A DNA stretch of 64,000 nucleotides from Candidatus Dojkabacteria bacterium (GCA_030950485.1 JAUZRK010000001.1:39998-103997), one strand, 5' to 3'; numbered from the stretch's first letter, positions 20,153 to 48,468 are shown. Made by a program: numbers and translations. The notes: generated by a model not told the origin, from the sequence alone.

Positions 20153-20833
20153 ATGAGGCGATTGCTTACATATACATTAATATTGTTGTTTGGAACACTA
20201 CTAGCCCTATGGTCACCATGGTTAAGGTGGAATATTTCAATAGCAGATCTTTTAGGTGCTGAGAAACCAGAAAGTATTGCAGGACTTCAGGTCTTCTCAT
20301 TAGCAGGTGAGCTTAATATTTATGTTGATGATGAATTCCAAGGTACAGTTACCACAGATAATTCACCGTATTTTATAAATAATATAACGCCTGGAGAACG
20401 AAGAATTAGAGTAGAAAGAAAATCAGATACTAATGGTGCTTATTGGAATTTCAATAGATTAATTAGTTTTGAAGAAGGAAATGATGTTGTTATCTCATAT
20501 AATATAGGTCCGAGTGAAGAATTCTCAACTGGAAATTTTATATATACTACGAAATCTTCAGAAGATGAAAAAAATAGAGCTAAACTAAATTTCAAACTAA
20601 ATGTAGAAGATTCAATAATTAGCATTGATAACATTACAAAAGTTGTTGATGGCTATACAGTTAGCGAATATGTAAATCTGGATAAACAGTATTCTGTAAA
20701 AGTAAGTAAGTCCGGATATGAAGATCTAGAATTTACCTTACTACCAAGTGAAAGTGAACTTAGATCAGAACTCGAAGGCCATGATCTAAATGTAGAAGTA
20801 AATTTAATGTTGCAACCAGTATTAGTCGAATAA
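20153..20833 (+). CDS. Secreted/membrane-anchored hypothetical protein (N-terminal TM), translationally coupled to the downstream 1043-aa gene
   Basis: N-terminal hydrophobic helix (LLTYTLILLFGTLLALW). Stop TAA overlaps the ATG of the next gene (TAATGA). Confidence 0.4.
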   Translation: MRRLLTYTLILLFGTLLALWSPWLRWNISIADLLGAEKPESIAGLQVFSLAGELNIYVDDEFQGTVTTDNSPYFINNITPGERRIRVERKSDTNGAYWNFNRLISFEEGNDVVISYNIGPSEEFSTGNFIYTTKSSEDEKNRAKLNFKLNVEDSIISIDNITKVVDGYTVSEYVNLDKQYSVKVSKSGYEDLEFTLLPSESELRSELEGHDLNVEVNLMLQPVLVE

Positions 20834-23800: not shown

Positions 23801-23964
23801 GAGTAAAAGGGGCTAGAACTACTCTAGATCATACAATTAAGTTGGGAAACAACTTACAAATAAGTAATATTGAGTCTGATATATCTTTCGTTCCGGGATC
23901 AACTGAGGTTGGCTATAATAAGCAAATACTGTCTGATCAAATCACTACTCTCAGCATACGTTAA
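20833..23964 (+). CDS. Large multi-domain protein (1043 aa): N-terminal NAD(P)-binding Rossmann (epimerase/SDR-like) domain, central TM segment, large C-terminal domain of unknown function
   Basis: N-terminal IIVGGISKLGLEVAESLVEQGGYVIIID (Gx2Gx2G-like). Hydrophobic stretch PLEIGALFVSVTLLIFVYFFAFAPFIYL near residue 430. About 600-aa C-terminal region with no recognisable domain. Confidence 0.45.
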   Translation: MRVPDQFKLKNTIKYPTSIIVGGISKLGLEVAESLVEQGGYVIIIDTVNEESIARLGTFSRNDLVSLLDYSSIPHLEEDIRRLDYVFYFNHEIVDFKNKISTQEFLTFSNYLDAVLTLATKFEAKFLLTSSIKVNQVILSEAELSLGLGSSDKVTHIYTEMETQKYAEGLVMEYGEKAELDVRIIRLGEIIGDEMNFRNLTSFTEFILNAVRGKALELKKDGLENEWYIHLLDAAYALIKAQFGSKTSARIFSASYDTSFSHLAIAYKIQEYSDGKTEIRFIRENDNLPSLKLYKPAKSLSDIGWVPKISFDKAIRESVASAKIFLAEKNIEKIKRNSNASLSSKLMSFLSLANDDSENRLNEDILDTMAREHDNDKKVKKNRLVLGHRDLKKRRRRPKTRKEKFQDIFWAGFTRFANIFTFFRNKSPLEIGALFVSVTLLIFVYFFAFAPFIYLTKNYTTAIQDTEELLDFANEKNYEQLTSKTEKIKIALEDNIDLLSMYEFSSKFITLEDELADIQEINDIYALAISGIIDVSENIDPLNVYLNEFYNNTVLRSGNESYLSINDNGVDFSAELSKVEGNRIYLVSGLEKLDKAIERLNKRDYTHLPEYIATRIVDMNLKLSELKSSLESSYYESYLAELLGATNQKTHLILVLDNTRLSPIGGDISAFALVTFKGGSVVDIVVRPVTDSLEIPTFSNEEIAYLNTNRFSLINATDIELNDFSSLTDFREFAFEMRSVFENEYERDIDGVITLNLNSLSELLSVNQIGPVNVSGLDFNESNFLNSLNNAQVQNENVEVRRDLIAQVLATFLYNEFNSYSNTYSDLVNKITSQLLLDNIYLDFDTSNIQDELDKNYISFAEDTDSYIKVTTLMNDPNNVNISKFSDINIALETSISNELSLSHKATVNFTNLGNGQELAVCLSRNTDPDSVVVSGLTSDSLRYVINEGEDDVCIVMRILSENSVTITWKEFSKFEVNGGETIIQLGVARVKGARTTLDHTIKLGNNLQISNIESDISFVPGSTEVGYNKQILSDQITTLSIR

Positions 23965-30915: not shown

Positions 30916-31617
30916 TCATATAAACTCCCTTTTTTTACTATTATATGTATTAACTACAGCACTTCCAACAACTGCAATATCAGCATGTTGTGATAACGCT
31001 TTAATATGTTCAGATTTGGAAATTCCATAACCTACAGCAATTTCAGTTTTAATATATTTTTTTACTCTATTAATATGACTAGATAATTCTGGGTCTAATT
31101 CACTTTTTTCACCAGTCGTTCCTTTTCTACTTGATAAATAAATTAAATCTTTTGCGTACTTTGCATTTTTCTTTATCCTCTCATCAGTACTTGTCGGAGC
31201 AAGAAGCCTAATTGGGTTAATATTATATTTCTGGCGTAATTCAATAAAATGTTCTTTATCTTCCATTTCAATTGAAATATCTGGAATTATTAATCCATAC
31301 GCACCAGCCTCAGACGAATCCTTAATAAATTTCTCGAGACTATAGGCGTTTAAAATATTGAAGTAAGTCATAAATATTAGCTTTGCTTTTACTTTAGAGC
31401 TCATTTCTTTCATTAGTTTAAAAGCATCTTCTACTCTTGTACCATTTTCAGGTGCAATTCTATTAGCTTCCATTATTGTCGGTTCGTCTCCTAATGGGTC
31501 AGAAAAAGGGATCTGAAGTTCGATATAGCTAACTCCAACTTCGTCCATAGCCTCAATTAATTTCCTTGATTCTTCTAAAGTTGGGTATCCAACTACAATG
31601 TGTGTCATTAGTTTCAT
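30916..31617 (-). CDS. trpA: Tryptophan synthase alpha subunit (N-terminally short; possibly decaying)
   Basis: ..YIELQIPFSDPLGDEPTIMEANRIA.. (TrpA active-site region) and C-terminal ..IAVGYGISKSEHIKAL..VVGSAVV... 233 aa, about 20 aa shorter at the N-terminus than typical TrpA. Its partner trpB is a pseudogene. Confidence 0.7.
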   Translation of the reverse strand: MKLMTHIVVGYPTLEESRKLIEAMDEVGVSYIELQIPFSDPLGDEPTIMEANRIAPENGTRVEDAFKLMKEMSSKVKAKLIFMTYFNILNAYSLEKFIKDSSEAGAYGLIIPDISIEMEDKEHFIELRQKYNINPIRLLAPTSTDERIKKNAKYAKDLIYLSSRKGTTGEKSELDPELSSHINRVKKYIKTEIAVGYGISKSEHIKALSQHADIAVVGSAVVNTYNSKKREFI

Positions 31618-31830: not shown

Positions 31831-32238
31831 TCACTCATTCTCTCCGTCAGCTATGCGGTCCTCCCTTCCGCGAAAGGAGGGTTGGGAGGGATGCTGCAAC
31901 AACCACAGCTTAATTCTCTCCACAACTCCCCCAACATTACTCATAATTTCATAATTCCAAAATCTTACAACTCGATATCCCATCCCATTTAACACTCTAG
32001 TTCTTTCAACATCATATTCTCTTCTACTCAAATGAACCTCTCCATCTACTTCGATAACTAACTTATACTTTGCAATATAGAAATCAACTATATATCTACC
32101 AATTACTTTCTGTCTTAGAACTCTAACACCTAATTTATCTCGTCTGATTTCTTGCCATAATATGTTTTCAGACTTTGCCATATTAGTTCTATTCTCCCTA
32201 GCAAATTTCTTTATCCTTCTCATAAAAAAAATTAGCAT
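31831..32238 (-). CDS. DUF559 / Vsr-like (restriction-endonuclease-fold) domain protein, inserted between trpB and trpA
   Basis: ..ILWQEIRRDKLGVRVLRQKVIGRYIVDFYIAKYKLVIEVDGEVHLSRREYDVERTRVLNGMGYRVVRFWNYEI.. matches the DUF559 consensus. Its C-terminal 20 codons are encoded by an inverted partial copy of the flanking repeat (31831..31900). Confidence 0.65.
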   Translation of the reverse strand: MLIFFMRRIKKFARENRTNMAKSENILWQEIRRDKLGVRVLRQKVIGRYIVDFYIAKYKLVIEVDGEVHLSRREYDVERTRVLNGMGYRVVRFWNYEIMSNVGGVVERIKLWLLQHPSQPSFRGREDRIADGENE

Positions 32239-32526: not shown

Positions 32527-33841
32527 TTAGAAAAATTCACTTTTACTTTTTACTTTTGCCTTCAAATAATCCCTAAACCCCTCATCCCCAAACTCCTCAG
32601 TCAGAATAAATAAGTCTTTATCTCCACGTCCAGATAAATTAATCACAATTACATCTTCCTTCTTAGTCTTAGGAACAAATTTAATTGCGTATGCGACAGC
32701 GTGCAATGATTCTAAAGTACCTATTATTCCTTCAGTTGCTGCTAATGTTTTAAAAGCTTCTTTTACTTTATTATCAGTAGCGTGTTCATACTTCACTCTA
32801 CCCTGCTCGTATAGCATTGCATGTTGAGGGCCGATACCTGCGTAATCTAGGCCTGCAGAAATACTGTGAGTAGGTTGAACTTGGCCGTCAGTATCCTGTA
32901 GAAAATATGATTTATAAACCTTCTACAACACCAATTTTTGGATCATTATTAAGTCTAGATGCATGATCACCTATTTCTTTAACTCCTTTCCCCCCTGCCT
33001 CAACTGCTATTAAATTAACTTCTTTATCATCTAGAAAAGTATTAAATATTCCGATTGAGTTACTTCCACCTCCAACACAAGCAATAATATAACTTGGTTT
33101 AGTTTCTCCATACTTTGTTATTTGCTCCTTAACTTCTAACCCTATAATAGATTGAAAACCTCTAACCATTGATGGATAGGGATGCGGTCCTAATGCAGAT
33201 CCTAGTAGATAATAGCTATCGTCGACATTTGCAATCCAATCTTGAATTGCAGCTGTAACCGCGTCTTTTAATCGTCTTGTTCCATGCTTTATCGGAACTA
33301 CTGTCGCTCCAAGGCTTTCCATCCAAAAAACATTCGGCCTTTGTCTTTTATAATCAACTTCTCCCATATAGACAATACATTCCATTCCAAATTTTGCCGC
33401 AACTGTTGCAGTTGCAAGTCCATGTTGACCAGCTCGGGTTTCGGCAATCAATCTTTTCTTCCCCATTCTTTTCGCCAGAAGGGCTTGACCTAAGCAGTGA
33501 TTAATTTTATGTGCTCCAGTATGGTTCAATCCTTCATTTTTTATATAAACTTTTCCTCCTCCTAATTTCTCAGTTAAGTTTTTAGCATAATATAAGGGTG
33601 TAGGTCTTCCTCAGTAATTTTTATATAAATCATTTAAAAATTCTGGATCATTTTTAGCAGCTATATAAGCATTTTCTAATTCTTCTAAAGCTGGTATTAA
33701 CATCTCAGGAACATACGCGCCACCATAATTACCAAAGAAGCCTTTATTATCTGAATCATATTGTGTCTTAATGAATACTTGCTTTACCATGTAGTTCGTC
33801 ATAATAAGTAAATTCTGGAGATAAAAGTTCATTAATCTCAT
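32527..33841 (-). pseudogene. trpB: Tryptophan synthase beta subunit, disrupted (in-frame TGA near 33593, frameshift near 32905-32915)
   Basis: Three fragments: 33611..33841 (..[14 protein letters not shown]..), 32912..33529 (..[41 protein letters not shown]..) and 32527..32817 (..NLSGRGDKD..). Reading through, ..[16 protein letters not shown].. shows a stop inside conserved sequence, and ..VVEGL*/..VYKSYFLQD.. needs a 1-nt shift. Confidence 0.8.
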
Positions 33842-34112
33842 TTATAAAATCATTAGGGTTCTCAATGTCTGATACATCTGCTATTTTAGAGCTATCTAAA
33901 CATTGAATAATTTGTTGAACTTCGCTAGTGTCATTCCTTCTTAAAATAACTTGCCTTGCTGCAATAATAGAACCTTATAAGTTATTAGATTGGACTATCG
34001 TACCTATTATTAAATCAAGATTAAAATCAAACTGAGGATTAAATTCAATAGTCCTTCCCGTACTAATTATTTGTCTAACTAAATTACTAAACTGTATCAT
34101 TTTAAAATTTCT

Positions 34113-34141
34113 AAAAAATAAAAAAACACCCTTTCGGGTGC
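34113..34141 (-). terminator. Rho-independent terminator downstream of the minus-strand yerC-like gene (CACCC-TTTC-GGGTG with U-tract on minus strand)
   Basis: Hairpin 34127-34140 preceded on the plus strand by A14 (T-run on the minus strand). Confidence 0.6.
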
Positions 34142-34254
34142 TTCATAAAATTTATTCGTTCAGCTACACCCAATAAAAATTGAGCTGCCACCAAGTTTTA
34201 GAAATTAGTTTAGAAAAGTTCATAGAAGAATGATACTATACTAGTCTGCTAGTA

Positions 34255-34515
34255 TCAACTACTTTTTATTATTTTTAATTCACCATTTTTTAAAGCCTTT
34301 GATCCCCTTGTTACAGTAGCAACACCTACTCCTAATTTCTTTGCAATATCGTGGTGCTTTTCTCCTTTTAAAATTAATTCAACTATATCTATTCTTTTAG
34401 GAATTTCTTTCATTTCTTTTGCTGTAAGGATTCTTTTTAAGAATTTTGATATTTCTTTTGGATCATTTATCTCTGCTAGGATATCTACTAATTTGTTGAA
34501 ACTTGATTTTTTCAT
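34255..34515 (-). CDS. TrpR-like YerC/YecD-family small DNA-binding protein
   Basis: ..ILTAKEMKEIPKRIDIVELILKGEKHHDIAKKLGVGVATVTRGSKALKNG.. matches the YerC/YecD (Trp-repressor-like) family. 86 aa. Confidence 0.6.
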   Translation of the reverse strand: MKKSSFNKLVDILAEINDPKEISKFLKRILTAKEMKEIPKRIDIVELILKGEKHHDIAKKLGVGVATVTRGSKALKNGELKIIKSS

Positions 34516-34604
34516 TATCTAAATTTAATAGATTAATATATTAAATATTGTGTTGAAGTGATTTAATTGATAATCTTATCTAGTATATAGAGTTTTTACA
34601 GAAA

Positions 34605-36329
34605 ATGAAGAAAAGAAAATTTTTAATAGGAATACTTTTAATTTTAACGATAGGGTTAGTAGGTGCATCACTATATGTAGGATTAAATCTACAAAATAGT
34701 GAAGGTCCTGAAGATAGTAGTGCAAGTACTTCTTGTACAGATACTTCTCCTGCATGTGTAGGGAAATCTAATGGTGATGACGCGGGATGTCAGGGTGGAG
34801 GGAGTGCTTTTAGATGTAAATGTGTAGCCGTTGCTTCTAGTGACCCTAACTGTAGTTCAGGAACTCTAAAAGTTAACTGTAGTTATGCTGATTCGAGCTG
34901 CGGTACTCCAACTAATAAATGTCCAAATGGTTCAAATTATTCAGGAGGTTGCGGTCAAGATGGATGCGCTTCTAATCAAAAGCCTCTTTTTGCTTGTGAT
35001 GCTAGTACAGAAAATACCTCTAAGACTGGTTGTCAAAGATCTCAAGATTGTGAAAATACAGTAGATCCTTGTAATGCTAATAGCGGTAGAGCTAATGCGT
35101 GTCAATGTTCTAGTAGCGGACAGTGTAGTTCAGGTTTTTGTAATTCAAGTAATAAGTGTGCAACAAAAACTAGTATAGGTGGCTTCACTTGCCCTAATCC
35201 TCCAAATGCCAGTGCAGTAATTTGTGCAGTATATGACTGCCCTAATGGAGATACTAATGGAGATGGCGAGTGTTTAGCTAGTGATGAAGGATCTAGCGAA
35301 GCTTTTTATACTTCAAACTGTCCAAGTAGCCCTCCTTCTGGTTGTGGTCAAATTGATTATTATACAGCTGCTAGCGGAAGTAGACCTGATTTTGGCTCTT
35401 ATTGTGGTTATTCATTCTTAAGCTTTAGCGCATGTAGTGGTGGAGTATCAGATCCTGTTTGCGGTAATGGTAAAAAGGAAGCTGGTGAAGAATGCGATGA
35501 TGGTAACAATAACAATAATGATTCATGTAATAATAATTGTAAGACAGTTGTACAACCTGTTTGCGGTGATGGGAAAATGGATGCAGGAGAAACTTGTGAT
35601 GATGGGAATAAAATAGATGGTGACGGCTGCGATTCTAATTGTCAAATCTCACCAAAATGCGGCGATGGCAATATGGATACTGGAGAGACTTGTGATGATG
35701 GGAATAATATTGATGGTGATGGGTGCGATAGTACTTGTCAAATTGAAGTAGATCCAACTTGCGGAGATGGGAATATGGATGCTGGTGAAACTTGTGATGA
35801 CGGTAACAATATAAATGGTGATGGGTGTGACTCAACTTGTCAGCTTGAAGAAAACCAATGTGGTGATTCTTGTACTACAAATTCTGAATGCCCTAATAAT
35901 CATTCTTGTATTTCAGGAACTTGTACTTTAAATGGTTGTACAGATAGTAACTGTGTTAATGGCTGTGCTCCAGTTTGTGGCGGACCTTGTACTTCTAATC
36001 TTGATTGTCCAAATGATCATAGCTGTGATTTAAATACTAATAAATGTATCTTAAGTGAATGTGCTAATGATCCTACTTGTATTAATAATGGCTGTCTTCC
36101 AAAGACTGCTCTTTTCTCTTCTGATAGCGGAATTCTAGCTGAAGAAAACAGACTTTTACTAAATGGTGTAGTTTTAATTATTAGCGCACTTTTAATTTAT
36201 AGATTAAAAGCTTTTAGTAAAACAGCAAAGTTTATTTCTGATGCAAATATTAGATTTACGTTTACAGGGAATGAAGATAGAAAAAGAAAAGAGTTTGAGA
36301 AAAAAATGAGTAGAAAAACTAGTAAATAA
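34605..36329 (+). CDS. Cysteine-rich repeat surface protein (574 aa): N-terminal signal/anchor, tandem Cys-rich repeats, conserved C-terminal module with CLPKTA + TM + basic tail
   Basis: N-terminal MKKRKFLIGILLILTIGLVGASLYVGLNLQNSEGPEDS. Four repeats of CG(N/D)G..(E/D)xGE.CDDGN..(N/D)GD(G/S)C(N/D)..C (Myxococcus-type cysteine-rich repeat pattern). C-terminal ..ECANDPTCINNGCLPKTALFSSD.., a 20-aa hydrophobic helix, then RLKAFSK. Confidence 0.6.
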   Translation: MKKRKFLIGILLILTIGLVGASLYVGLNLQNSEGPEDSSASTSCTDTSPACVGKSNGDDAGCQGGGSAFRCKCVAVASSDPNCSSGTLKVNCSYADSSCGTPTNKCPNGSNYSGGCGQDGCASNQKPLFACDASTENTSKTGCQRSQDCENTVDPCNANSGRANACQCSSSGQCSSGFCNSSNKCATKTSIGGFTCPNPPNASAVICAVYDCPNGDTNGDGECLASDEGSSEAFYTSNCPSSPPSGCGQIDYYTAASGSRPDFGSYCGYSFLSFSACSGGVSDPVCGNGKKEAGEECDDGNNNNNDSCNNNCKTVVQPVCGDGKMDAGETCDDGNKIDGDGCDSNCQISPKCGDGNMDTGETCDDGNNIDGDGCDSTCQIEVDPTCGDGNMDAGETCDDGNNINGDGCDSTCQLEENQCGDSCTTNSECPNNHSCISGTCTLNGCTDSNCVNGCAPVCGGPCTSNLDCPNDHSCDLNTNKCILSECANDPTCINNGCLPKTALFSSDSGILAEENRLLLNGVVLIISALLIYRLKAFSKTAKFISDANIRFTFTGNEDRKRKEFEKKMSRKTSK

Positions 36330-36406
36330 ATACTATTTAAATTGTAAATTAATTGTAATCATTCTCCTAAATTGATAGTCTGTATTGAGACGTTCACTAA
36401 CGACAT

Positions 36407-38734
36407 ATGAAGAAAAAAAGTAGAAAAATTGTAATTGCAATATTATTAATATTAACTCTTGGTTTAACAGGAGTTTCTGTTTATGTAGGACTTAATCTAC
36501 AAACTAGCGAAGCCCCAGAAGATTCAGCAGCAGGATGTTGGTGTACGGGATCAAATGAATGCCCTAGTGGTTACAGCTGGCAAGGCTCTGGCTCTGGCTG
36601 GTGTAGTGCTCCATTAGGCTGCTGTAATGCTGGAGGTGGCGGTTCGGCTGGAGGTGGAAGTACTGGAGGAGGGACACCTTCTACAGGAAGTTCTGACGGT
36701 TCTGCTTGTACATTCGGTAATAACTCTACTTGCGGTAACGTTTGTTGTTCATGTGGTAAGTGTGGGGGTGTTACAAAGACTTGTAATCAGATATGTGGAT
36801 CTTCAAGTGCAGGTGGAAGTAATCAATGTGAGACAGATACAGGAAGACCTGTAAATTGTGCTTGTAATAATGGTTCGCAGTGTTCATCTGGGAATTGTTC
36901 TGGTGGTACTTGTAAAAATGCTATTGACCCTTGTTCTGAGACTTCTGGAAGACCAAATGGTTGCTCTTGCAGTTCAGGATCTCAATGTTCAACGGATAAT
37001 TGCTCTGGAGGATCTTGTAAAACAACAGACAATACTGGAGGTGGTTCAACAGGTGGAGGACTAGGAGTTGGTGATGCTTGTACATTAGGAGGAGCTAGCT
37101 GTCCAACAGGATCGGCTTGTACACCGAATCAAAATGGAAACAATGTATGTAATGCTATTGATGGTTCAGGATTAGTAGATGGAACAAACCTAACTTACAA
37201 CCAGTGCGTTGCAAGTGGTTCTACTTGCGGTGGTAATTATATTGCATTTAACTGTCCTAATGGATTTGGAGACCAATGTTTTGAAAATGAATTAAGAACT
37301 ACTTCTTTATCTGCTGCTACTTCGCATATGAATGGTTGCGGGCAAGTTGACACAGTATTCCAAGGTGGTTCTTGTAATGATCGTTTATGCGGTGGATTTG
37401 TTATTTCAAAAACAAACTGTGGAGGAGGCGGTGGTGGTGGAACTGTAGACCCTGCTGGACCAGTTTGTGGTAATGGAGTAAAAGAAAGTGGTGAGCAATG
37501 TGATGATGGTAATACAAATAATAACGATAGCTGTAATAATAGTTGTAAAACTGTAGTTCAGCCAGTATGTGGTAATGGTCTTATGGAAAGCGGTGAAGCT
37601 TGTGATGACGGTAACAATAATAATGCTGATAGTTGTAATAATAATTGTCAGATTGTAGACGCAATTAGCTGTGGAGATGGCGTTATGGAAGGTGATGAGC
37701 AATGCGATGACGGTAATAACGTAAACAATGATGGGTGTAGTGCAACTTGTACTTTAGAGCAGTTTCAATGCGGGGAGCCATGTTCAGTAGATGCTCAGTG
37801 TCCAAATGGCCATTCTTGTCTAGATGGAATATGTACATTAGATACTTGTACAGCACAAACATGTACAAATGGTTGCCCTAACTCTTGTGGTAATGGTGTT
37901 TTAGAAACAGGAGAACAGTGTGATGATGGGAATAATACAAATGGAGATGGATGTAGCGCTACTTGTACACTAGAGGCAATAGATCCTCTTTGTGGTGACG
38001 GTAATCTTGACCCTGGAGAAGAATGCGATAATGGTACAGGCAATGGAGCTGTTTGTACTCCAACATATGGAAATAATTGTCAGTTCTGTTCTCTTAACTG
38101 TTCTCAGTTAGAAATTGAAGGACCTAGCTGTGGTAATGGAACAGTTGAAAGTATGGAGCAATGTGATCCCTTAGCAACACCTAATGGCTGCGCAGCATCT
38201 TCAACATGTACTAGCTCTTGTATTTGTGAACCTGTGACTGGTCCACAATGTGGTGATACCTGTGGATCAAATCTAGATTGTCCAAATAATCATTCATGTA
38301 TTTCTGGTAAATGTACACTTAATGGATGTACCGATGGAAACTGTGTTAATGGTTGTTTCCCACTATGTGGAGGACCATGTACCTCAAATAAAGACTGTCC
38401 AAATGATCACACTTGTAATTTAATAACTAATCGTTGTGTATTAAGTGAATGTGCAAATGATCCAACATGTATTAATAATGGATGCTTGCCAAAGACTGCA
38501 ATATTCTCATCTGATGATGGAGTATTCTCTGAAAGTAATAGAAATTTAACTTTTGGGTTAATGATTATGGCTACTGCTCTATTGCTTTATAAGTTTAATT
38601 TCTTTACAAAGATAGGTTTAAATCTTACTGGAAGTAAATATAGATTTGTATTCTCTCCTTTAGATAATGATCTAAAACAAAAAGGATTTGAATATAAAGT
38701 AGAAAAAGACTTAGAAGATAAAGCTAAAGATTAA
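36407..38734 (+). CDS. Cysteine-rich repeat surface protein paralog (775 aa) with the same N-terminal anchor and C-terminal CLPKTA + TM module
   Basis: MKKKSRKIVIAILLILTLGLTGVSVYVGLNLQTSEAPEDS. Gly/Cys-rich N-region. Six or more CG(N/D)G..GE.CD(D/N)GN..(N/D)GDGC repeats. C-terminal ..ECANDPTCINNGCLPKTAIFSSDDG.. + TM + ..KFNFFTK... Confidence 0.6.
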   Translation: MKKKSRKIVIAILLILTLGLTGVSVYVGLNLQTSEAPEDSAAGCWCTGSNECPSGYSWQGSGSGWCSAPLGCCNAGGGGSAGGGSTGGGTPSTGSSDGSACTFGNNSTCGNVCCSCGKCGGVTKTCNQICGSSSAGGSNQCETDTGRPVNCACNNGSQCSSGNCSGGTCKNAIDPCSETSGRPNGCSCSSGSQCSTDNCSGGSCKTTDNTGGGSTGGGLGVGDACTLGGASCPTGSACTPNQNGNNVCNAIDGSGLVDGTNLTYNQCVASGSTCGGNYIAFNCPNGFGDQCFENELRTTSLSAATSHMNGCGQVDTVFQGGSCNDRLCGGFVISKTNCGGGGGGGTVDPAGPVCGNGVKESGEQCDDGNTNNNDSCNNSCKTVVQPVCGNGLMESGEACDDGNNNNADSCNNNCQIVDAISCGDGVMEGDEQCDDGNNVNNDGCSATCTLEQFQCGEPCSVDAQCPNGHSCLDGICTLDTCTAQTCTNGCPNSCGNGVLETGEQCDDGNNTNGDGCSATCTLEAIDPLCGDGNLDPGEECDNGTGNGAVCTPTYGNNCQFCSLNCSQLEIEGPSCGNGTVESMEQCDPLATPNGCAASSTCTSSCICEPVTGPQCGDTCGSNLDCPNNHSCISGKCTLNGCTDGNCVNGCFPLCGGPCTSNKDCPNDHTCNLITNRCVLSECANDPTCINNGCLPKTAIFSSDDGVFSESNRNLTFGLMIMATALLLYKFNFFTKIGLNLTGSKYRFVFSPLDNDLKQKGFEYKVEKDLEDKAKD

Positions 38735-38739
38735 CAACT

Positions 38740-38976
38740 TTAAGGTAGTTCTATTCTAGGTTCTTCTAGATCCATCATTTGCATTAGCAACTTGTATCTT
38801 ATAAGAAAATCTTCTATATCGATAGATTCCCATTCTTCGGGTGCCTGACCCCTAAATAGAGCTGAACTAATATAATTTGAATCTCTTAACCTTAATGGGT
38901 TCATTATTTTTCTATATTTAACCCTTGCATCTTTCATACTAGTTCCTTCTTTTTTTGCTGCTACAATATTGTTCAT
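38740..38976 (-). CDS. Small hypothetical protein (78 aa)
   Basis: Complete ORF; unknown. Confidence 0.25.
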   Translation of the reverse strand: MNNIVAAKKEGTSMKDARVKYRKIMNPLRLRDSNYISSALFRGQAPEEWESIDIEDFLIRYKLLMQMMDLEEPRIELP

Positions 38977-39161
38977 ACTTCTATTATTAGCATCCCCATA
39001 TTCCTTAGAATTATCTATTAGATAATTACTTACCTATGATAGTCTTTGAAGCAAATCCGATCTAGTACCTTCTTCTAGCTTACTTAGAGAATCATTAATA
39101 TAAGTTTCAATAATTCTATAACTATTAAGATTATTAATAAGAGTCTTAGTGCCCTCTTTAT

Positions 39162-39587
39162 CTATAAAAAAACTTGATTATCTATTAGAGTAATATGTGC
39201 AGAATAGCTTAAGACCGATCTTAGTGTATCTTCTTGATTCATCGTTATAAGATCAGGTAGTTTTAACAGTGTATTTATAGCAGCATAAGCGAGAAAGAAT
39301 TCGTTTTTGAAAACTTCAACAGAACTTAATAAAGAAATTCCTAAAGGCATATGCCTCTTCTCCATTGCCTTGAAATAGTAACCATCATTTTTTGATTCCT
39401 CATCTATCTGTTGTAAGTGACCAATTATATCTGCAGTTATGTCCCCGTTAGCATCAATATTAAGCATCTCTACAACTTTTAGTATTACTACTTGTGAACT
39501 TCCTTGTGCATATTTTTCTGTCGTAATAACCTTCAGATCTAGGCCTTCAGGGTTTAGATAATCATCTCCCAATTCATCTATTAACAT
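39162..39587 (-). CDS. Hypothetical protein (141 aa)
   Basis: Complete ORF; unknown. Confidence 0.3.
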   Translation of the reverse strand: MLIDELGDDYLNPEGLDLKVITTEKYAQGSSQVVILKVVEMLNIDANGDITADIIGHLQQIDEESKNDGYYFKAMEKRHMPLGISLLSSVEVFKNEFFLAYAAINTLLKLPDLITMNQEDTLRSVLSYSAHITLIDNQVFL

Positions 39588-39769
39588 ACTTACATAATAT
39601 TAATATTATTTTGTCTAGATATTTAGACTGGGGATTTTATCACAACCAATAACGTTATCCGATACTGGCGACGTAATTAAGCTATCTACTTATATGTCTT
39701 ATTCTTTGTGTTAAGTGATTAAAGATAGGGCTTTTGCCTAGGCACAGTAAAAGCTAATATACTACTTCT

Positions 39770-40375
39770 CTACCCTACTATTTGTTTTAAATATTTAATC
39801 TGACTGATTAGAATCAACAAAGAGTTTCTTGGGCCTAATATTAAGTAGTTTTGACCAGAAGCATTGTGTATTCGTTCTAATTCTAACTTAGTTGGATCTA
39901 AAAGTTCTTTAAATTTCGAATTTACTTTTTCGCTCGCTCTAGATTTTAATTCGTAGTTCCCATCCTCATCAATTGTAAATAGACAAAAAACATCATCGCC
40001 TTTAGTATAATTAAGATATTGAACCTTCATACTGCTGACTACTATTTCTAATTTTTCATGTCTATTTGTAATATTTACGAGAGGTAGTTTTATAGTAGAT
40101 CTATCTATCTCTGCAACTGACATTATTGATATAGTAATAAGTGGATGCGGCAGCGATTGGTCTTTAGTTATAACAAGCTCGTACTGCTGTTTGAAAAGTA
40201 TGTCTTCAAACATAATAACTATGTTTGTATCGCTTTTAATATCAACATTAAATTGAATATCTCTACCCACGATTGCTTCGTCCCAAATATCTAATATATC
40301 TTCTGCAAATGCTGGATATAAGTTTAACTCTTTATCGTAGAAAGGTCCTTTTTCTGTTTACTCTTCGATATTGTT
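39770..40375 (-). CDS. Hypothetical protein; N-terminus apparently split by a frameshift at an A5 run (MADNKTISKSKQ.. in another frame upstream of 40270)
   Basis: ORF 39770..40270 continues upstream without a stop to about 40340 in one frame. An ATG ORF (MADNKTISKSKQKKDLSTIKS*) in the adjacent frame overlaps it at acagaaaaagg. Confidence 0.3.
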
Positions 40376-40432
40376 TTATTATCAGCCATAAATCAGTTTT
40401 GAATATATTTAGACATTATTTAAGTAATAAAA

Positions 40433-40786
40433 TTACTTGTTAGATTTATCCAATTGCTCTCTCAACTCTTCATTCTCTTTCTGTAAAGCTTCGATAGCCT
40501 TAAAAGTTAGTTCATTAAATTTCTGTTGCCTCATACTCTGTTTCTCAACAATATTAAAAGTAATATTTCTTATCCTTGTAAGAAATAATCTCTTAGCTTT
40601 GCTGATTAAACCTGCTCTTTTAGGTGGTTCATAAGAATACAAAGAAGACAAAGTATCTTTCGAGTTTTCAAGAGCTGGGATGATAAGTTCAGAAAGTATT
40701 TCTGAATTAGTTTTTTTTGCAGCTACAGAAGTACCTTCATCTTCTAAAACTTTGTTAACTCTTTCTAATAATCCATTATCACTCAT
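40433..40786 (-). CDS. Coiled-coil hypothetical protein (117 aa)
   Basis: Heptad-like charged sequence; unknown function. Confidence 0.3.
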   Translation of the reverse strand: MSDNGLLERVNKVLEDEGTSVAAKKTNSEILSELIIPALENSKDTLSSLYSYEPPKRAGLISKAKRLFLTRIRNITFNIVEKQSMRQQKFNELTFKAIEALQKENEELREQLDKSNK

Positions 40787-40788
40787 GT

Positions 40789-41979
40789 TTAATTTCTATA
40801 AATTGGATTAATTATCATCTCTTCAGCTCCTAGTGCAAAATCTAATTCTAAAAATGAATTATCTTTATACTGATACCATTTTGAGTCATTATCAAAATCT
40901 ATTTTTATTAAAAGTTCATATTGCCCCAAACTAGTACATTCAATAGTTTCTTCATCGAGTTCTAGTGGTATTTCACTAGCAAATATCTTCTGTTCAATAA
41001 TATTGCCTGCAATATTGAAATAAACAAACTTAAGCTCATTTACTTCATTATTTAAAGTATATCCGATGAAATCATCATTTGAGATTGAGCAAGCAGTCTT
41101 AAAATTGTTCTCTATAAAATTGTCTATCGCTAAATCGCTACCTATATAAGTTTTAAACATTGAACTTATAAATGGGTTTATCTTAGATTCAAAAATCACT
41201 CTTTCAGAATCCTTACTGAAGACTAAATTTGTAGGTACTAAGTTTATATCACCTTCACTTTTAATTCCCCCTAAATCCCAAGCCACATTCCCTTTTGTAG
41301 TCAACACCCTTATTACATAACTTATTGTATCTTTTACAACAAGGTACTGACCATTTTCAGTTATTTTAATAATATCAGCATTTATAATTTGTTCTTTTAA
41401 TATTTGATTATCAGCTTCTAGATCAAGACTTTGTAACCATATTTCATTTTCTTCTTCACCTTGTGTAAAAAGTATATTTTTATCTCCACTCCACTCATAG
41501 CTTTGAATTCCTCTTCCAACTTCGTTAAAATTTGAAACTTGTTCCCATGACTCATTTTTAAATGAATATATCCATAGATCGTATTGTTCTATAGTCTGAG
41601 TCTCTCCCTCAGCATCTTCATAACTAAAATCATATGGCTTAAGTGCGGATAGATATAATCCATCATTAGAAAATTGTAGATTTTTCCAATCATCTCTTTC
41701 TAAATTAATATCTATTTCCTTACTATTTTTATCAATAGTCATGATTGTCTTGTCAGCAGTAATTACAGCATACTTTATATCTTCTGTCGTAAATTGATCC
41801 AACGGATCCTCAACTTGATTATTACCATCATCTGGATTACTAGTGGGTTTAATATCAGTTATTTGACCTGAATCTGAAGATTCTGAGTTAGGAGTAGAAG
41901 AATTTAGCGCAACAAAAGCTACTCCAAATATGAGCATTAAAATAACTAGGACTATAAATATAAATTTCTTAGATAACAT
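40789..41979 (-). CDS. Secreted/membrane-anchored hypothetical protein (396 aa, N-terminal TM/signal)
   Basis: MLSKKFIFIVLVILMLIFGVAFVALNSS.. followed by a Ser/Asp-rich linker and a large beta-rich region. Overlaps the upstream methyltransferase gene by 11 nt. Confidence 0.4.
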   Translation of the reverse strand: MLSKKFIFIVLVILMLIFGVAFVALNSSTPNSESSDSGQITDIKPTSNPDDGNNQVEDPLDQFTTEDIKYAVITADKTIMTIDKNSKEIDINLERDDWKNLQFSNDGLYLSALKPYDFSYEDAEGETQTIEQYDLWIYSFKNESWEQVSNFNEVGRGIQSYEWSGDKNILFTQGEEENEIWLQSLDLEADNQILKEQIINADIIKITENGQYLVVKDTISYVIRVLTTKGNVAWDLGGIKSEGDINLVPTNLVFSKDSERVIFESKINPFISSMFKTYIGSDLAIDNFIENNFKTACSISNDDFIGYTLNNEVNELKFVYFNIAGNIIEQKIFASEIPLELDEETIECTSLGQYELLIKIDFDNDSKWYQYKDNSFLELDFALGAEEMIINPIYRN

Positions 41980-42667
41980 CTTTTTTATAAATCTTATATA
42001 AGTTCATTCTATCTTCTTTCCCATCAGAAAAAAAGCTGTCTACTAGTAATAAGTTACTTTCCGACTCTATTAATCTTATTTCATCTTCATTCGAAAAGTG
42101 ACAAAATCTGTAAGTTGAGTTATCTTTTCCAAAAGTTAACAAGTAATCATTTTCTCCAAGACTAACCTCATTGTAAGCGATATTAGATTCCTCTAGTTTA
42201 TGGGATTCTACATACCCTTCAATAGCAGCAAATTGCCAGAATGTATTTATAAATATTCCCATACTATGCAATAAAATATTTACTGAATTATATACGTTCT
42301 CTCTTGCTTTGTTATTTTCCAGGTGATGCATAACTCCAAAACAAACAATCAGATCATACTCATCATTTAGTTTTCTAGACCATTCTGAATCATTTAAATC
42401 TATTTCTATAAATTTTTTACTAGCATTTGTATTTTTAGTATTATCAATTGCAATTTCTAAAAGTTCCTTTGAGTTATCAATACCTGTATAACTTTTAACA
42501 TCAATATGTTTTTCTTCTAGAAAATCCAAGAATCTTCCATTCCCACAACCTATATCAAGGATCGATAAAGGTTTATTATCTATATATTCAGTTAGTCTAC
42601 CCCACCCTTTCCAAGGATATGCTCTGGAATTAGAGAATTTTTTTGCGTGTGTAGTATAAAGATTCAT
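41969..42667 (-). CDS. Class I SAM-dependent methyltransferase
   Basis: Motif I ..ILDIGCGNGRFLDFL.. and an acidic motif II (..DLIVCFGVMHHL..). Confidence 0.65.
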   Translation of the reverse strand: MNLYTTHAKKFSNSRAYPWKGWGRLTEYIDNKPLSILDIGCGNGRFLDFLEEKHIDVKSYTGIDNSKELLEIAIDNTKNTNASKKFIEIDLNDSEWSRKLNDEYDLIVCFGVMHHLENNKARENVYNSVNILLHSMGIFINTFWQFAAIEGYVESHKLEESNIAYNEVSLGENDYLLTFGKDNSTYRFCHFSNEDEIRLIESESNLLLVDSFFSDGKEDRMNLYKIYKKDVI

Positions 42668-42726
42668 TAGATGATATAAATATTTTATTCAATTATAATG
42701 CATTAGCTTTTTAAATAATAAAAGAT

Positions 42727-44118
42727 TTGACCAAACCATATTCTAAAATTTTTGAACTTAAGTTTTTTTCTCACCTTATATTAATCTTACTTAGTTTTGG
42801 GATTTTAACTATACCCCTTGTTACTGGTTTTAATAATTATACTCTAGGAAGAGGTTGGGATTTGCCAAAGGTTAATTTATTAATGCAATTATTAGTATTA
42901 CTTAGTTTTTTAATACTAGTGCAAAAAACTTACTTAATCTCTATTAATAGACTGAACTTTAGTAGGGCTAAGAAGATTCTTCTGCCTATAGTTCTTTTAA
43001 CCTACCTATTTATAGTAACAATTAATTCTAGTTGGACTAGAAATTTAGATCCAGATACTGAATTAAATAGTATTTATAAGTTCCTCTTTCATAATATTCT
43101 TGGCAAGACTGAACTAATCGAAGTAAATCAATCTTTAGTCGGAAATGCATTTAGAGAGACTGGATTTGTGTTTTATTTTATCTTATTGGTATCTCTATTT
43201 CTAATCTCATCTTATATAAACAAAGATACTATTAAATATATATTTTTAGCTTTTATAACCTCTTCAATTTTACAGTCATTTATTGGGCTAAATCAGTTTT
43301 ATAGACTCTACCAAAATGACCCAGAAAATATTTTTCTTGGAGAAAGAGTTTATGGAAGCTTTGGGCAGGCAAATTTTTTTGCAGGACATATTTTTATTGG
43401 CTTCTTTATTTCGGCATTCTTATTAACTAATTATAAGCAAAGGTCAAAGCTTAAAAATATAATTCTTTCAATTTCAACTAGCTTAATACTTTTAACACTA
43501 ATACTGTCTTTTTCAATTTGGATTTATGTAATCATGGTTCTATCCTTACTATTTATTCTAATTTATAAATACTTTGATAAAAAATACTATAGGAAAGTAT
43601 TGGCATTATTTTTTATTTTATTAGCAATCCTAGCAGTTCCATTAGGTTCCTTATTTGTTAAATATAATAGTGAGTATGAACATAGAGTAACTATTTGGGA
43701 GGATGTTATTAGAGTTTATATTCAAAACCCAATTGATGGTAAAGATGATATTAAACTAATGTTATTTGGTTCAGGTTTTGATACTATGGGCGAAGAATTT
43801 AGAGAATGGAATAAAATTCCTGGGAACTACACAGATAGGTCGCATAATATAATTTTTGATACAATTGCTTTTACTGGAATTTTTGGATTAGTAGTACTAG
43901 CTTCCGGACTGATATACATTTTTCTTAGAAGAAGTAGTTTTAATAGTGAACATCAGTATTTGCTTTTTACACTTTTCTTCTTACTATTAGCTAGAAACTT
44001 AGTTCATACTTACTCTGCTGTAAACTTATTTGAGTTATTCTTGTTTGGTATAATTTTACTGAATAGTGGTTTATACACTACGAAAGATCTGCAATCTGAT
44101 AAAGAGATTGCAGCTTAA
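42727..44118 (+). CDS. Polytopic integral membrane protein (10+ TM; possibly O-antigen ligase/polymerase-like)
   Basis: 463 aa, almost entirely hydrophobic helices with one larger loop. Family not confirmed. Confidence 0.35.
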   Translation: MTKPYSKIFELKFFSHLILILLSFGILTIPLVTGFNNYTLGRGWDLPKVNLLMQLLVLLSFLILVQKTYLISINRLNFSRAKKILLPIVLLTYLFIVTINSSWTRNLDPDTELNSIYKFLFHNILGKTELIEVNQSLVGNAFRETGFVFYFILLVSLFLISSYINKDTIKYIFLAFITSSILQSFIGLNQFYRLYQNDPENIFLGERVYGSFGQANFFAGHIFIGFFISAFLLTNYKQRSKLKNIILSISTSLILLTLILSFSIWIYVIMVLSLLFILIYKYFDKKYYRKVLALFFILLAILAVPLGSLFVKYNSEYEHRVTIWEDVIRVYIQNPIDGKDDIKLMLFGSGFDTMGEEFREWNKIPGNYTDRSHNIIFDTIAFTGIFGLVVLASGLIYIFLRRSSFNSEHQYLLFTLFFLLLARNLVHTYSAVNLFELFLFGIILLNSGLYTTKDLQSDKEIAA

Positions 44119-46034: not shown

Positions 46035-46697
46035 TTAGTAAATGAAATCAGTCCAATCAATGTGATTAATAGAACTATACTTGTAGTCTGTTGGATAATC
46101 GTATCCCCATTTTTCAGCGTGTTTCAAATGATTATTTATTGTATATAAGTATTTAACATTAAATTCTTTCTCATTACGAATTACTCTATAGTAAAAAGAC
46201 TTTTGCCATTTGAATTTTGGATCATTTGATTTTGGTATATCTTTTCGATGTCTTGATATGTAATCGTGTATTTGTTCTAGGAGATTTGGTAGAGAGGCAT
46301 TTGTATGATATTGCCGTGAACGTAGGGGAAGAAACGTTTCTTCCCCTACGTTGCCTCTGGCGTTACTCCCTGCCATAGGCCCATTCGAATCAAACATCAA
46401 TTTATTAAACCCCATAATCGTATTACAGCTATGCGAAAACTGTTTCTTAATAGAAAACATAATTTTTGAAATATCAGACTTTTCTGATGGCTTAATAATT
46501 AGATGTAGATGATCATACAATATATTAAATGCATACAACTCGAATCCATGAATCTTTTTTGATAATTTCAATTGCATAATTAATAAGTCAGCGAACACGT
46601 TGTTTTTAAAATATGGATAATTATTTTGTGTTTTTGTTGTTATAAAATATATGGCATGATCTACATAAAACCTTTCTGTTGTTTTGTATTTGTTCAT
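46035..46697 (-). mobile_element. REP-associated tyrosine transposase (RAYT; IS200/IS605 TnpA-like HUH Y1 transposase) with an internal REP insertion
   Basis: HUH motif ..YDHLHLIIKP.. and RAYT C-terminal motif ..KWQKSFYYRVIRNEKEF... A perfect 30-bp palindrome CGTAGGGGAAGAAACGTTTCTTCCCCTACG (46321..46350) lies in-frame inside the gene (..GSNARGNVGEETFLPLRSRQYH..). Confidence 0.7.
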
Positions 46698-46839: not shown

Positions 46840-48468
46840 CTATGAGTTCAAAATAATTAATTCACTCTTTGCCCTTGTTGCTGCTACGAATAATAGTTGT
46901 CTATCAACCTTTGTAAATTCTTCTTTAGATATATCACATTCTAATTCAAAAAACTGGTTCTTATCTAAAAAGCTATTTTTATTTGCAATAAATACAGTAT
47001 CAAACTCCATTCCTTGAGAATCTTCTGAAGTTAAGAAATGATAATTATCTGGCCAGTTTTGATTTTTAGAAAAGTCTAATTCTTCTATATATTTTGAAAG
47101 AACTCCTACCTGTCCTTTATAACCTGTATCTACAAGCTTGTTTAATTCAGCTGTAATATGTTCATGTTTTAATTTATCATTTACAAAATTCATTTCAATA
47201 ACCGCTTTTCCAATTTCTGTTACCATATCAACGTTTACATCATAGTCCTCTTTTTCTAACCAACTTAATATAGACTTTGTATTCCTATATGCTTTAGTTA
47301 GAGTCACCTCATTATCAACAGGATATCCTTCTTCTAATTCATTCCAACTTCTTATTGTAAATGGTTTTGTTCTTTGGTTAATATCTCCAACATAGGTTAC
47401 AGAGTCGAATTTGACATCCGTAATAATCTTAATTATATCAAGCTGCATTGGCAACCAGTTCTGAACCTCGTCTACAACGATATGACTATATACTCTCTTA
47501 TGAACTTCTGTATTCTTGCATAGAAGTGCAGTATCAATATCATCTAACCAATAATCTTCTTGCTGATTATTTATAAATGATTTAAATATTTTTAAAAATG
47601 GGGATTTAGATTGAAATGAGTTATATATATTAAAAAGCCTATCTAAACCAACATTTTCTTTACCTATGTTTTTTAATGCTTCAAGTTTATATTTTCTAAT
47701 TTCATTGAAAATGATTTCAGGGTTTAGATTTGTACCTACTTCCATTTCATAATTAAGAATAGATAATGCCTGATCTTTTGTTAAAGCTTTATATCTTTTA
47801 TTAAAGTTTTGATTTACTACTGCCAAAGACCATTCCAAGAAGGTTAAGACTTTTGCAGTTTTTATTCCTAAATCAAGTAGTAATGTACTAAAGTATTTAA
47901 TTGCTGAATTATCACTTACAAATACAATTATATCTTCAGCTTTAAAGTACTCGGTAAACTCTGGTGATTGAATTAAATAAGCCAATCTATGTAGAGCAAG
48001 AGTTGTTTTTCCAGAACCTGCTGGACCGGATATTAAAAAGCCTCCTTTTGGATCTAATCTAATTATTGTATCTTGAGCTGCTTCAAGTTGAGCTATTATC
48101 TCTGGAAGTGCGAAATCTTTTTTCTCTGATAAATGTTTATGAAAAATAAGTTCTCTTTCATTATCTTCCCTATCTAAAGTAAGATATGTGATATCACTAT
48201 TTGTAATGATATAACTATATTTTTCATTTATAAAAACTTCTTTACGCTGACCGTTTGGAATTTCGTACGAAGCTTTACCGTTTTTTTTTAATCGTAATCT
48301 TGCTATTGGAGATATCCAAGAGACAATATTTTCATCTCTATCAAAATGTTTACCAATAAACAGATTATAGTTCTGGCCATGTCTTTCTGAGTCAAAATCT
48401 ATTTTTGCAAAGTAAGTAGAATCTACTAGCTTTTCTAAACTATCTGCATCCTCGATAAACAGAGTCAT
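46840..48468 (-). CDS. UvrD/HelD-like superfamily-1 DNA helicase
   Basis: Walker A GPAGSGKTTLALHRLAYL, DExx ..IVVDEVQN.., ..TKAYRNT.., ..SQGMEFD.., motif VI ..LFVAATRAK... The reading frame stays open upstream of the annotated ATG, so a longer N-terminus with a non-ATG start is possible. Confidence 0.65.
   Translation of the reverse strand: MTLFIEDADSLEKLVDSTYFAKIDFDSERHGQNYNLFIGKHFDRDENIVSWISPIARLRLKKNGKASYEIPNGQRKEVFINEKYSYIITNSDITYLTLDREDNERELIFHKHLSEKKDFALPEIIAQLEAAQDTIIRLDPKGGFLISGPAGSGKTTLALHRLAYLIQSPEFTEYFKAEDIIVFVSDNSAIKYFSTLLLDLGIKTAKVLTFLEWSLAVVNQNFNKRYKALTKDQALSILNYEMEVGTNLNPEIIFNEIRKYKLEALKNIGKENVGLDRLFNIYNSFQSKSPFLKIFKSFINNQQEDYWLDDIDTALLCKNTEVHKRVYSHIVVDEVQNWLPMQLDIIKIITDVKFDSVTYVGDINQRTKPFTIRSWNELEEGYPVDNEVTLTKAYRNTKSILSWLEKEDYDVNVDMVTEIGKAVIEMNFVNDKLKHEHITAELNKLVDTGYKGQVGVLSKYIEELDFSKNQNWPDNYHFLTSEDSQGMEFDTVFIANKNSFLDKNQFFELECDISKEEFTKVDRQLLFVAATRAKSELIILNS

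Follow-up and report, generated by a model that had tools for sequence, protein, structure and literature searches.

A Candidate Extended LPXTA Sorting Signal on Modular, Cysteine-Rich Proteins of Candidatus Dojkabacteria and Related Bacteria

Introduction

Class D sortases recognize the motifs LPXTA, LPDTA, and LPDTS, and their substrates include the LPXTA carbohydrases of Bacillus cellulosilyticus, BasH and BasI of B. anthracis (LPNTA), and YfkN (LPDTA) and YhcR (LPDTS) of B. subtilis (PMC3617157, PMC8225981). In the known LPXTA signals, the motif is followed by a spacer of ~5 residues, a transmembrane (TM) helix, and a basic tail of 8–10 amino acids (aa) (PMC3617157, PMC8225981). Here, we analyzed a 64,000-nucleotide stretch of DNA from a Candidatus Dojkabacteria bacterium (GCA_030950485.1, JAUZRK010000001.1:39998-103997; hereafter, the window, with positions counted from its first nucleotide), in which two tandem open reading frames (ORFs) encode cysteine-rich proteins of 574 and 775 aa. 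Both proteins end in a module made up of cysteine-rich stalk repeats, an LPKTA motif, a predicted TM helix, and a tail. An original prediction, made from the sequence of the window, had proposed that this module is a dedicated sorting signal of a bacterium of the Candidate Phyla Radiation (CPR), and the host lineage, Dojkabacteria (WS6), does belong to the CPR.

Several themes that meet at this locus are already known, namely LPXTA sortase signals, sortases in CPR bacteria, and cysteine-rich CPR surface proteins. Sortases are found in more than half of the CPR genomes and are near-universal in Microgenomates (PMC6744442), and Peribacteria have been reported to combine a sortase A with extracellular, cysteine-rich proteins that carry Myxococcus-type repeats (PMC4736985). 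In Streptococcus gordonii, the membrane remnant of LPXTG adhesins (the "C-peptide") is sensed by the SGO_1180 two-component system, as summarized in PMC11326707. What we did not find in Pfam, NCBIfam, or the searchable literature is the specific protein chassis described below, its extended signal with an acidic patch and a long tail carrying a conserved box, or the restriction of such a signal to a few CPR lineages. Host attachment defines the lifestyle of the CPR (Patescibacteria), and, to our knowledge, almost nothing is known about how these bacteria display their surface proteins.

Results

A Candidate C-Terminal Signal Conserved in About 60 Proteins

To collect relatives, we searched 1.84 billion representative proteins exhaustively with HMMER, using the two aligned window modules as the query (E ≤ 1e-3). 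The search returned 74 matches, nearly all of which aligned at the extreme C-terminus; they are proteins of 350–1,070 aa from Dojkabacteria, Saccharibacteria, and unnamed metagenomic relatives, all within the CPR. About 60 of the 74 end in [LI]PxT[AGS] followed by an acidic spacer, a TM helix, and a tail of 31–64 aa, and the density of [LIV]PxT[AGS] in the 30 aa before the TM helix is 101 times that in the rest of these proteins. The recurrence of the same architecture, together with this positional enrichment, indicates that the C-terminal block is not a product of chance.

Sixty-four of the proteins, which we call class A, have a tail of at least 20 aa. The strict motif [LIV]PxT[AGS] lies no more than 30 aa from the TM helix in 53 of them, and most of the remaining 11 carry near variants such as LPKTN, LPESA, TPITA, or VDTA. 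The fifth motif residue is mostly alanine (A in 39, G in 13, and S in 7). After the motif, class A proteins continue with [LI]-[FI]-[SD]-[DE]-x-x-D-[RK], an acidic spacer of 5–9 aa, and a TM helix of 17–20 aa that ends in [KR][FLY]. In the alignment of the window modules, an invariant cysteine sits shortly upstream of the motif. The columns outside the pattern used for selection are still biased (L or I at position +5 in 48 of 59 proteins, F or I at +6 in 42 of 59, and acidic residues at +7 and +8). Furthermore, a box of the form R-x-K-[FY]-E-K-[KR]-hydrophobic, hereafter the F-E box, is present in 56 of 59 class A tails, with a median distance to the C-terminus of 9 residues, and its columns are strongly biased although the selection did not impose them.

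Nine other relatives, class B, have the same stalk repeats and end in LPxTG or LPxAG and a TM helix without the tail. Two class B LPxTG ends that were tested against the LPXTG_anchor model TIGR01167 scored 13.7 and 14.8 bits, just under its cutoff of 15.9, and one class A tail with LPQTG reached 12.5 bits. Since the same stalks carry near-canonical LPxTG ends in class B, LPxTA occupies the position of a canonical sortase signal in homologous proteins. The proposal of a dedicated sortase-type (LPxTA) sorting or anchoring signal therefore gains support from the ~60 divergent proteins and from these nine LPxTG/LPxAG relatives.

The two classes also differ at the N-terminus. The class A leader has, family-wide, basic residues, a hydrophobic segment of ~25 aa, and the sequence LQxSQAPxDSSA, whereas the class B leader (P0030, P0040, P0052, P0057, and others) has a long N-terminal extension and a TM segment followed by [DE][VI]RQQA. 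This co-variation of the leader type with the C-terminal type may be lineage-specific or may reflect functional coupling.

Between these conserved ends, the family is modular. The chassis consists of the leader, one or more cysteine-knot "CPNxHxC" stalk repeats, and the C-terminal signal, with interchangeable and mostly uncharacterized heads placed between the leader and the stalk. Iterated local searches with hidden Markov models (HMMs) defined a type A head (~90 aa) in 16 members, including the class B proteins P0030 and P0052, and a type B head (~84 aa) in 7 members. Neither head was matched in a Pfam scan, and a sequence search of the PDB with the 775-aa protein found no relative. Nearly all of the ten other members scanned with Pfam were domain-free, the exceptions being DUF4215 in one and an internalin-type immunoglobulin domain just below the cutoff in another. 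Many members lack the TIGR02232/DUF4215 repeats that are prominent in the window proteins, and these repeats are consequently an optional passenger module.

The signal is used repeatedly within genomes. Tandem pairs of signal-bearing genes occur in a Saccharibacteria metagenome-assembled genome (MAG) (locus L001, 6959–10567) and in another MAG (L006, 1–2882). The upstream protein of the L001 pair (402 aa) has no cysteine stalk and no F-E box, yet it ends in LPNTA, a TM helix, and a 21-aa tail. No neighboring gene is conserved across the six family loci. On two unrelated contigs (L004 and L005), the family gene is followed by genes for PNPase and MurJ, a partial synteny with no obvious functional link.

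Other searches added no relatives. When the 162-aa module was compared with a word index of 5.8 billion proteins, no match was returned, and the index seems to miss this family; a signal-only alignment of 58 sequences gave none in the same index, at whose size a 75-aa signal cannot reach significance. The pattern CTNNGCTL retrieved 30 stretches from metagenomes, none of which was confirmed, and a direct DNA pattern retrieved two loci, neither with a signal-bearing ORF.

Two Window Proteins with a Common Chassis and Different Heads

The 574-aa protein is encoded at 34605–36329 on the plus strand and is deposited at NCBI as MDQ6984745.1 under the name "DUF4215 domain-containing protein" [Candidatus Dojkabacteria bacterium], as found by an exact-sequence look-up. 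The 775-aa protein is encoded at 36407–38734, also on the plus strand; these two ORFs and the adjacent 86-aa ORF described below are confirmed. An exact look-up of this sequence itself returned no record; MDQ6984746.1 is the 775-aa member of its cluster and bears the same name, and both records belong to a contig of 179.6 kb. The two proteins align in BLASTP with E = 1e-87 and are thus real paralogs, as had been proposed. In both, the cysteine-rich repeats score above the curated thresholds of TIGR02232 myxo_disulf_rpt (89.8 bits in the 574-aa and 114.5 bits in the 775-aa protein; cutoff 20.8; 4–5 repeats) and of PF13948 DUF4215 (44.1 and 51.6 bits, respectively; cutoff 27), so their assignment to the Myxococcus type was correct.

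The leader of the 574-aa protein (aa 1–42; 34605–34730, plus strand, as are all of the features of both proteins) has a basic N-terminus, a hydrophobic segment of ~25 aa (the hydrophobic stretch as a whole spans aa 3–30), and LQxS(E/Q)(G/A)PxDSSA; it may be a secretion leader or a signal anchor, as its length also fits an anchor that is not cleaved. The iterated HMM search places a type B head, cysteine-rich and of the form CPNGDTNGDG...CGQID, at aa 192–274 (35178–35426). It is followed by four cysteine-rich acidic DUF4215/TIGR02232 repeats recognized by the curated models (aa ~281–417; 35445–35855) and by two stalk repeats of the form CGxxC...CPNxHxC...C, delimited by alignment with the paralog (aa 418–497; 35856–36095). 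LPKTA, in which the proposed sortase-type cleavage site lies between T and A, occupies aa 498–502 (36096–36110). Then come an acidic spacer in doubled form, LFSSDSG plus ILAEEN (aa 503–515; 36111–36149), the predicted TM helix (aa 516–532; 36150–36200), and a predicted cytoplasmic tail of 42 aa (aa 533–574; 36201–36326), whose R-K-E-F-E-K-K-M box lies at aa 561–568 (36285–36308).

The 775-aa protein begins with a leader of the same type (aa 1–44; 36407–36538), and its head is of type A, cysteine-rich and of the form ...IAFxC...CGQVD...CGxF (aa 247–338; 37145–37420). Its DUF4215/TIGR02232 repeats are interleaved with one stalk-type repeat (aa ~350–612; 37454–38242), and the alignment and the AlphaFold model described below place two further stalk repeats at aa 614–693 (38246–38485). 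LPKTA (aa 694–698; 38486–38500) is again followed by a doubled acidic spacer, IFSSDDG plus VFSESNRN (aa 699–713; 38501–38545), a predicted TM helix (aa 714–730; 38546–38596), and a predicted cytoplasmic tail of 45 aa (aa 731–775; 38597–38731). This tail comprises a juxtamembrane helix and then a terminal helix (aa 751–774), and its K-G-F-E-Y-K-V box lies at aa 757–765 (38675–38701). The two proteins are therefore relatives that share a chassis and carry different heads, rather than simple copies of each other.

Some features of the module differ from what had been predicted. The tails were described as short and basic, but they are 42 and 45 aa long with net charges, counted from the sequence, of ~+9 in the 574-aa and ~+1 in the 775-aa protein. 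The spacer of the window proteins is indeed long, as had been noted; in them, the motif lies 13–15 aa from the TM helix, compared with 5–9 aa in most relatives. This distance is a Dojkabacteria-specific doubling of the acidic spacer, present in all three Dojkabacteria paralogs, including the third paralog P0002 (L003, ~11170–11210).

P0002 (471 aa) has the same leader and stalk and ends in GCLPKTN, a spacer, a TM helix, and a tail, so that the genome holds at least one further protein with the module. It lies on a different contig of the sister assembly GCA_030949735.1, which means that the module is not limited to the tandem pair; it has two NCBI accessions, one in the number range of each assembly. 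The sister assembly and the window are 99.87% identical at window positions 33534–43306 but differ by 7 indels over these 9.8 kb (L002, L009). These indels split the 775-aa gene into 714 and 55 aa, and rplM is also split there, which looks like homopolymer-type assembly error of that MAG. The close copy P0001 is accordingly a frameshifted version of the 775-aa gene, and the truncated entry MDQ7021727.1 is misleading.

Purifying Selection on the Stalk and LPKTA

We compared the paralogs region by region, estimating the rate of synonymous substitution (dS) and the ratio of the nonsynonymous to the synonymous rate (dN/dS) by the Nei–Gojobori method for the 574-aa/775-aa pair and for each protein against P0002. 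The strong conservation claimed for a ~90-aa C-terminal module holds for the stalk and LPKTA, which are 82% identical over 85 aa, but not for the spacer, TM helix, and tail, which are 36% identical. The leaders, which had been called near-identical N-terminal anchors, share 71% identity. dS is saturated (0.9–2.5) in every region of the pair and of each protein against P0002, indicating that the duplication is old. Between the 574-aa and 775-aa proteins, dN/dS is 0.11 in the stalk plus LPKTA, 0.17 in the DUF4215 repeats, 0.26 in the leader, 0.45 in the spacer, TM helix, and tail, and 0.64 in a poorly alignable N-terminal region.

The low dN/dS of the stalk and LPKTA at saturated dS shows that this segment is kept by purifying selection and not by gene conversion. 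Positive selection is not indicated in any of the regions compared, all of which have a dN/dS below 1. The suggestion of a diversifying pair is thus not supported; the heads are different domains, and the differences between the two proteins reflect domain swapping.

This history leaves little room for the view that the similar C-termini are a by-product of recent tandem duplication or gene conversion with no signal function. The genes are adjacent and have both of their ends in common, as that view would have it. On the other hand, the saturated dS is at odds with recent duplication, and the same architecture recurs in an unlinked third paralog and in ~60 proteins of other organisms. The family-wide architecture and the saturated dS refute this explanation, and we give it next to no credence.

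Predicted Structure of the C-Terminal Module

An AlphaFold model of the C-terminal module of the 775-aa protein was built from an alignment of 29 sequences. The stalk repeats are modeled as small beta-hairpin knots, and LPKTA and the spacer form a non-regular stretch of low confidence (predicted local distance difference test, pLDDT, 53–59). The TM helix (module residues 99–116) has a pLDDT of ~90 and is followed by a short juxtamembrane helix (residues 119–129) and by the terminal helix with the F-E box (residues 138–161), whose pLDDT is up to 95. The model thus predicts a structured tail and an LPKTA motif that is exposed immediately outside the membrane.

Neighboring Genes and Other Features of the Window

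The 86-aa ORF adjoining the 574-aa gene (34255–34515, minus strand) had been called TrpR/YerC-like. It does match the family model PF01371 Trp_repressor (61.6 bits; cutoff 27), but it misses both equivalog cutoffs (TIGR01321 TrpR, 60.2 versus 67.25; TIGR02531 YerC, 35.3 versus 42.2). It heads a minus-strand cluster with trpB (32527–33841), an endonuclease-like DUF559 gene (31831–32238), and an intact trpA (30916–31617). trpB is broken into three ORFs in different frames (32527–32817, 32912–33529, and 33611–33841). An alternative genetic code was considered for trpB and rejected; its pieces are separated by frameshifts and not by in-frame TGA codons, and table 11 is therefore the correct code. 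Either decay of a trp salvage cluster or residual assembly indels could account for this arrangement.

The regulator had also been linked to the surface-protein pair. No TrpR-family gene neighbors the family gene at the five other loci (L001 and L003–L006), and the trp cluster best accounts for its position next to the 574-aa gene. The 89-bp region between the 86-aa and 574-aa genes may act as a common divergent control region, an arrangement for which we found no support. A promoter and terminator scan gave nothing above the shuffled background, and no terminator was found between the 574-aa and 775-aa genes. A second gene of the Trp_repressor family lies at 56042–56341 (minus strand; 99 aa; PF01371, 84.5 bits), giving two TrpR/YerC-like proteins in the window.

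Elsewhere in the window, a 1043-aa protein (20833–23964, plus strand) combines a DUF4012 domain with a weakly epimerase-like N-terminal region; DUF4012 belongs to the envelope-associated families highlighted as common to CPR and Gram-positive bacteria (PMC6744442). An IS200/Y1-transposase-like ORF (46035–46697, minus strand; PF01797, 32 bits) adjoins a UvrD-like helicase (46840–48468). The G+C content rises to 0.39 at 36001–38000, compared with a window mean of 0.32, with a strong positive GC skew; the rise is due to the Gly/Cys-rich coding of both surface genes rather than to foreign origin.

Discussion

The best explanation, in which we place about even confidence, is that the C-terminus is an extended variant of a sortase sorting signal, LPXTA-type and class D-like, on a modular CPR surface-protein chassis. 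The leader would carry the protein through Sec, and the C-terminal helix and cytoplasmic tail would keep it membrane-bound while leaving the LPxTA linker exposed. A sortase would then cleave between T and A and join the ectodomain to the wall, leaving a remnant of ~70 aa (spacer, TM helix, and tail) in the membrane. The conserved cytoplasmic helix of this remnant might have an additional function, which could be to retain or target the protein before it is cleaved or to signal once cleavage has taken place. The spacer length of 5–9 aa and its acidic character match the classical sorting signals, and the signal recurs in the third paralog of the same genome, in the L001 and L006 tandem pairs, and on the stalk-less LPNTA protein of L001. 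Proteins displayed in this way could serve as adhesins.

Several observations weigh against a sortase signal. The tail of a sortase signal is short (~5–10 aa) and positively charged; the tails here are 4–6 times longer, that of the 775-aa protein is nearly neutral, and its terminal helix is conserved and confidently modeled. Such a conserved, confidently helical box is unexpected in a segment destined only for removal and degradation. The window tails matched no NCBIfam sorting-signal model even at E ≤ 10, TIGR01167 included. The query of the family search contained the stalk, so the use of the signal on unrelated passengers was barely sampled. Furthermore, no sortase was found: a scan for the TLxTC signature and a phmmer search with S. 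aureus SrtA found none in the window or L001, the signature scan of all of the loci examined gave nothing credible, Pfam detected no sortase domain (PF04203) in 33 window ORFs, and the precomputed annotation available for ~45 kb of this organism's other contigs and for the flanks of four further members lists no PF04203. Extension beyond the ends of the window gained 2.7 kb upstream and nothing downstream. The sequence of this genome covered by the search amounts to ~110 kb (the 64-kb window plus the ~45 kb), or about 10% of the usual size of a CPR genome, and the absence of a sortase from it leaves the matter undecided. Outside Microgenomates, sortases are patchy in the CPR (PMC6744442).

Could the C-terminal helix instead be a permanent anchor? 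We regard this as possible, if doubtful: the helix would act as an uncleaved stop-transfer segment of a receptor or anchor, and the F-E box helix would dock a cytoplasmic partner for localization, signaling, or coupling to another machine. The LPxTA-acidic segment would then be a juxtamembrane element kept for some other reason or inherited as a relic from an ancestral sortase signal. The long tail, the F-E box in nearly all class A members, and the high pLDDT of its helix are what such an anchor would predict, and the missing sortase and the patchy distribution of these enzymes fit it as well; in a different CPR system, secreted-type proteins have been described that are permanently anchored by a C-terminal TM helix (bioRxiv 10.64898/2026.03.03.709456). 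However, the motif, the acidic spacer, and the spacing are exactly those of sortase signals, and relatives with the same stalk end in canonical LPxTG and a TM helix. A relic, furthermore, is hard to reconcile with a nearly invariant P and T and a 101-fold positional enrichment of the motif across proteins that are only ~25% identical in this region.

A dedicated non-sortase system, in which an unrecognized membrane protease or transpeptidase specific to some CPR lineages reads LPxTA, the acidic patch, the TM helix, and the F-E box helix together, seems improbable to us. It would accommodate the lack of a match to any curated sorting-signal model, a tail helix that has no counterpart in the known sortase signals (PMC3617157), and the co-variation of the leader and C-terminal types. 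Nevertheless, the scanned window ORFs yielded no candidate enzyme, be it a rhomboid, CPBP, exosortase, or archaeosortase; the six loci have no conserved neighboring gene in common; and the pentapeptide is a textbook sortase motif, which makes a new enzyme unnecessary. The original prediction had also pointed to MYXO-CTERM or exosortase-type signals. A MYXO-CTERM, PEP-CTERM, or GlyGly-CTERM signal cut by an exosortase, archaeosortase, or rhombosortase has in its favor only the loose analogy of the Myxococcus-type repeats and the invariant cysteine near the motif. In exosortase-type signals, as defined in TIGRFAMs, the motif directly abuts the TM helix and the tail is short and Arg-rich, a layout unlike the one found here. 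The scanned window ORFs include no multi-pass enzyme of this kind, and the lack of any NCBIfam match at E ≤ 10, PGF-CTERM included, effectively refutes this candidate at the level of the signal; we consider it very unlikely indeed.

More speculatively, and in our estimate unlikely, the module of some CPR lineages could be a two-function "sort-and-signal" device. Its outer half would serve ectodomain release or wall attachment, and the F-E helix of the ~70-aa stub would recruit a cytoplasmic partner, for example, for placement at the site of host contact or for reporting that processing has occurred; alternatively, the whole signal would be read by an unrecognized non-sortase enzyme. If the signal is found to go without a sortase, a new anchoring or processing system would be implied. 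If it is a sortase signal, it would extend the concept of such signals by a long, structured cytoplasmic tail. The signature of leader, cysteine-knot stalk, LPxTA-acidic-TM segment, and F-E box tail would make it possible to list, from sequence, the candidate surface proteins and adhesins of Dojkabacteria, Saccharibacteria, and their relatives, most of which are otherwise "dark" proteins without a Pfam domain. Cultivable Saccharibacteria could provide an experimental system, provided that their genomes carry the signal.

How does this signal compare with the described systems? Like the class D substrates, the proteins here have LPxT followed by A or S, a spacer of a few residues, one hydrophobic helix, and a positive residue directly after the helix, and the signal is carried by several different proteins of one genome, secreted in the class D systems and presumably so here. 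Unlike them, the host is a CPR bacterium. The class D signals continue as LPXTAT[NST] and end in a basic tail of 8–10 aa, whereas the signal here continues as [LI][FI][SD][DE]..D and ends in a tail of 31–64 aa with the F-E box helix. The frequent adjacency of sortase D to its substrate genes (PMC3617157) is also not seen, as no sortase adjoins the family gene in any of the six loci.

The order of motif, hydrophobic helix, and charged tail is that of the canonical LPXTG signal (TIGR01167; S. aureus protein A type), and acidic residues downstream of the motif are common in staphylococcal signals. On the other hand, G is replaced by A in about two-thirds of the members, the window tails do not match TIGR01167, and the tail is much longer and structured. 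The S. gordonii C-peptide, as summarized in PMC11326707, provides a precedent for a membrane remnant of sortase cleavage having a function of its own. That remnant is an ordinary short LPXTG tail that is sensed within the membrane and has no conserved cytoplasmic helix, and the present sequences give no indication of sensing.

With regard to the proteins themselves, the family resembles the large extracellular proteins of Peribacteria (Anantharaman et al. 2016), which share the CPR origin, the high cysteine content, a weak or clear similarity to Myxococcus repeats, and a presumed role in attachment; the Peribacteria genomes that encode them were noted to hold a sortase (PMC4736985). The Peribacteria proteins have a mean length of 1,655 aa, and no common C-terminal signal has been described for them (PMC4736985), whereas the family here consists of proteins of 350–1,070 aa with a defined leader, stalk, and signal. 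Similarly, both window proteins resemble the TIGR02232/PF13948 repeat proteins in exceeding the curated cutoffs with 4–5 repeats, but in this family the repeats are only one optional module on a chassis defined by its two ends and its stalk.

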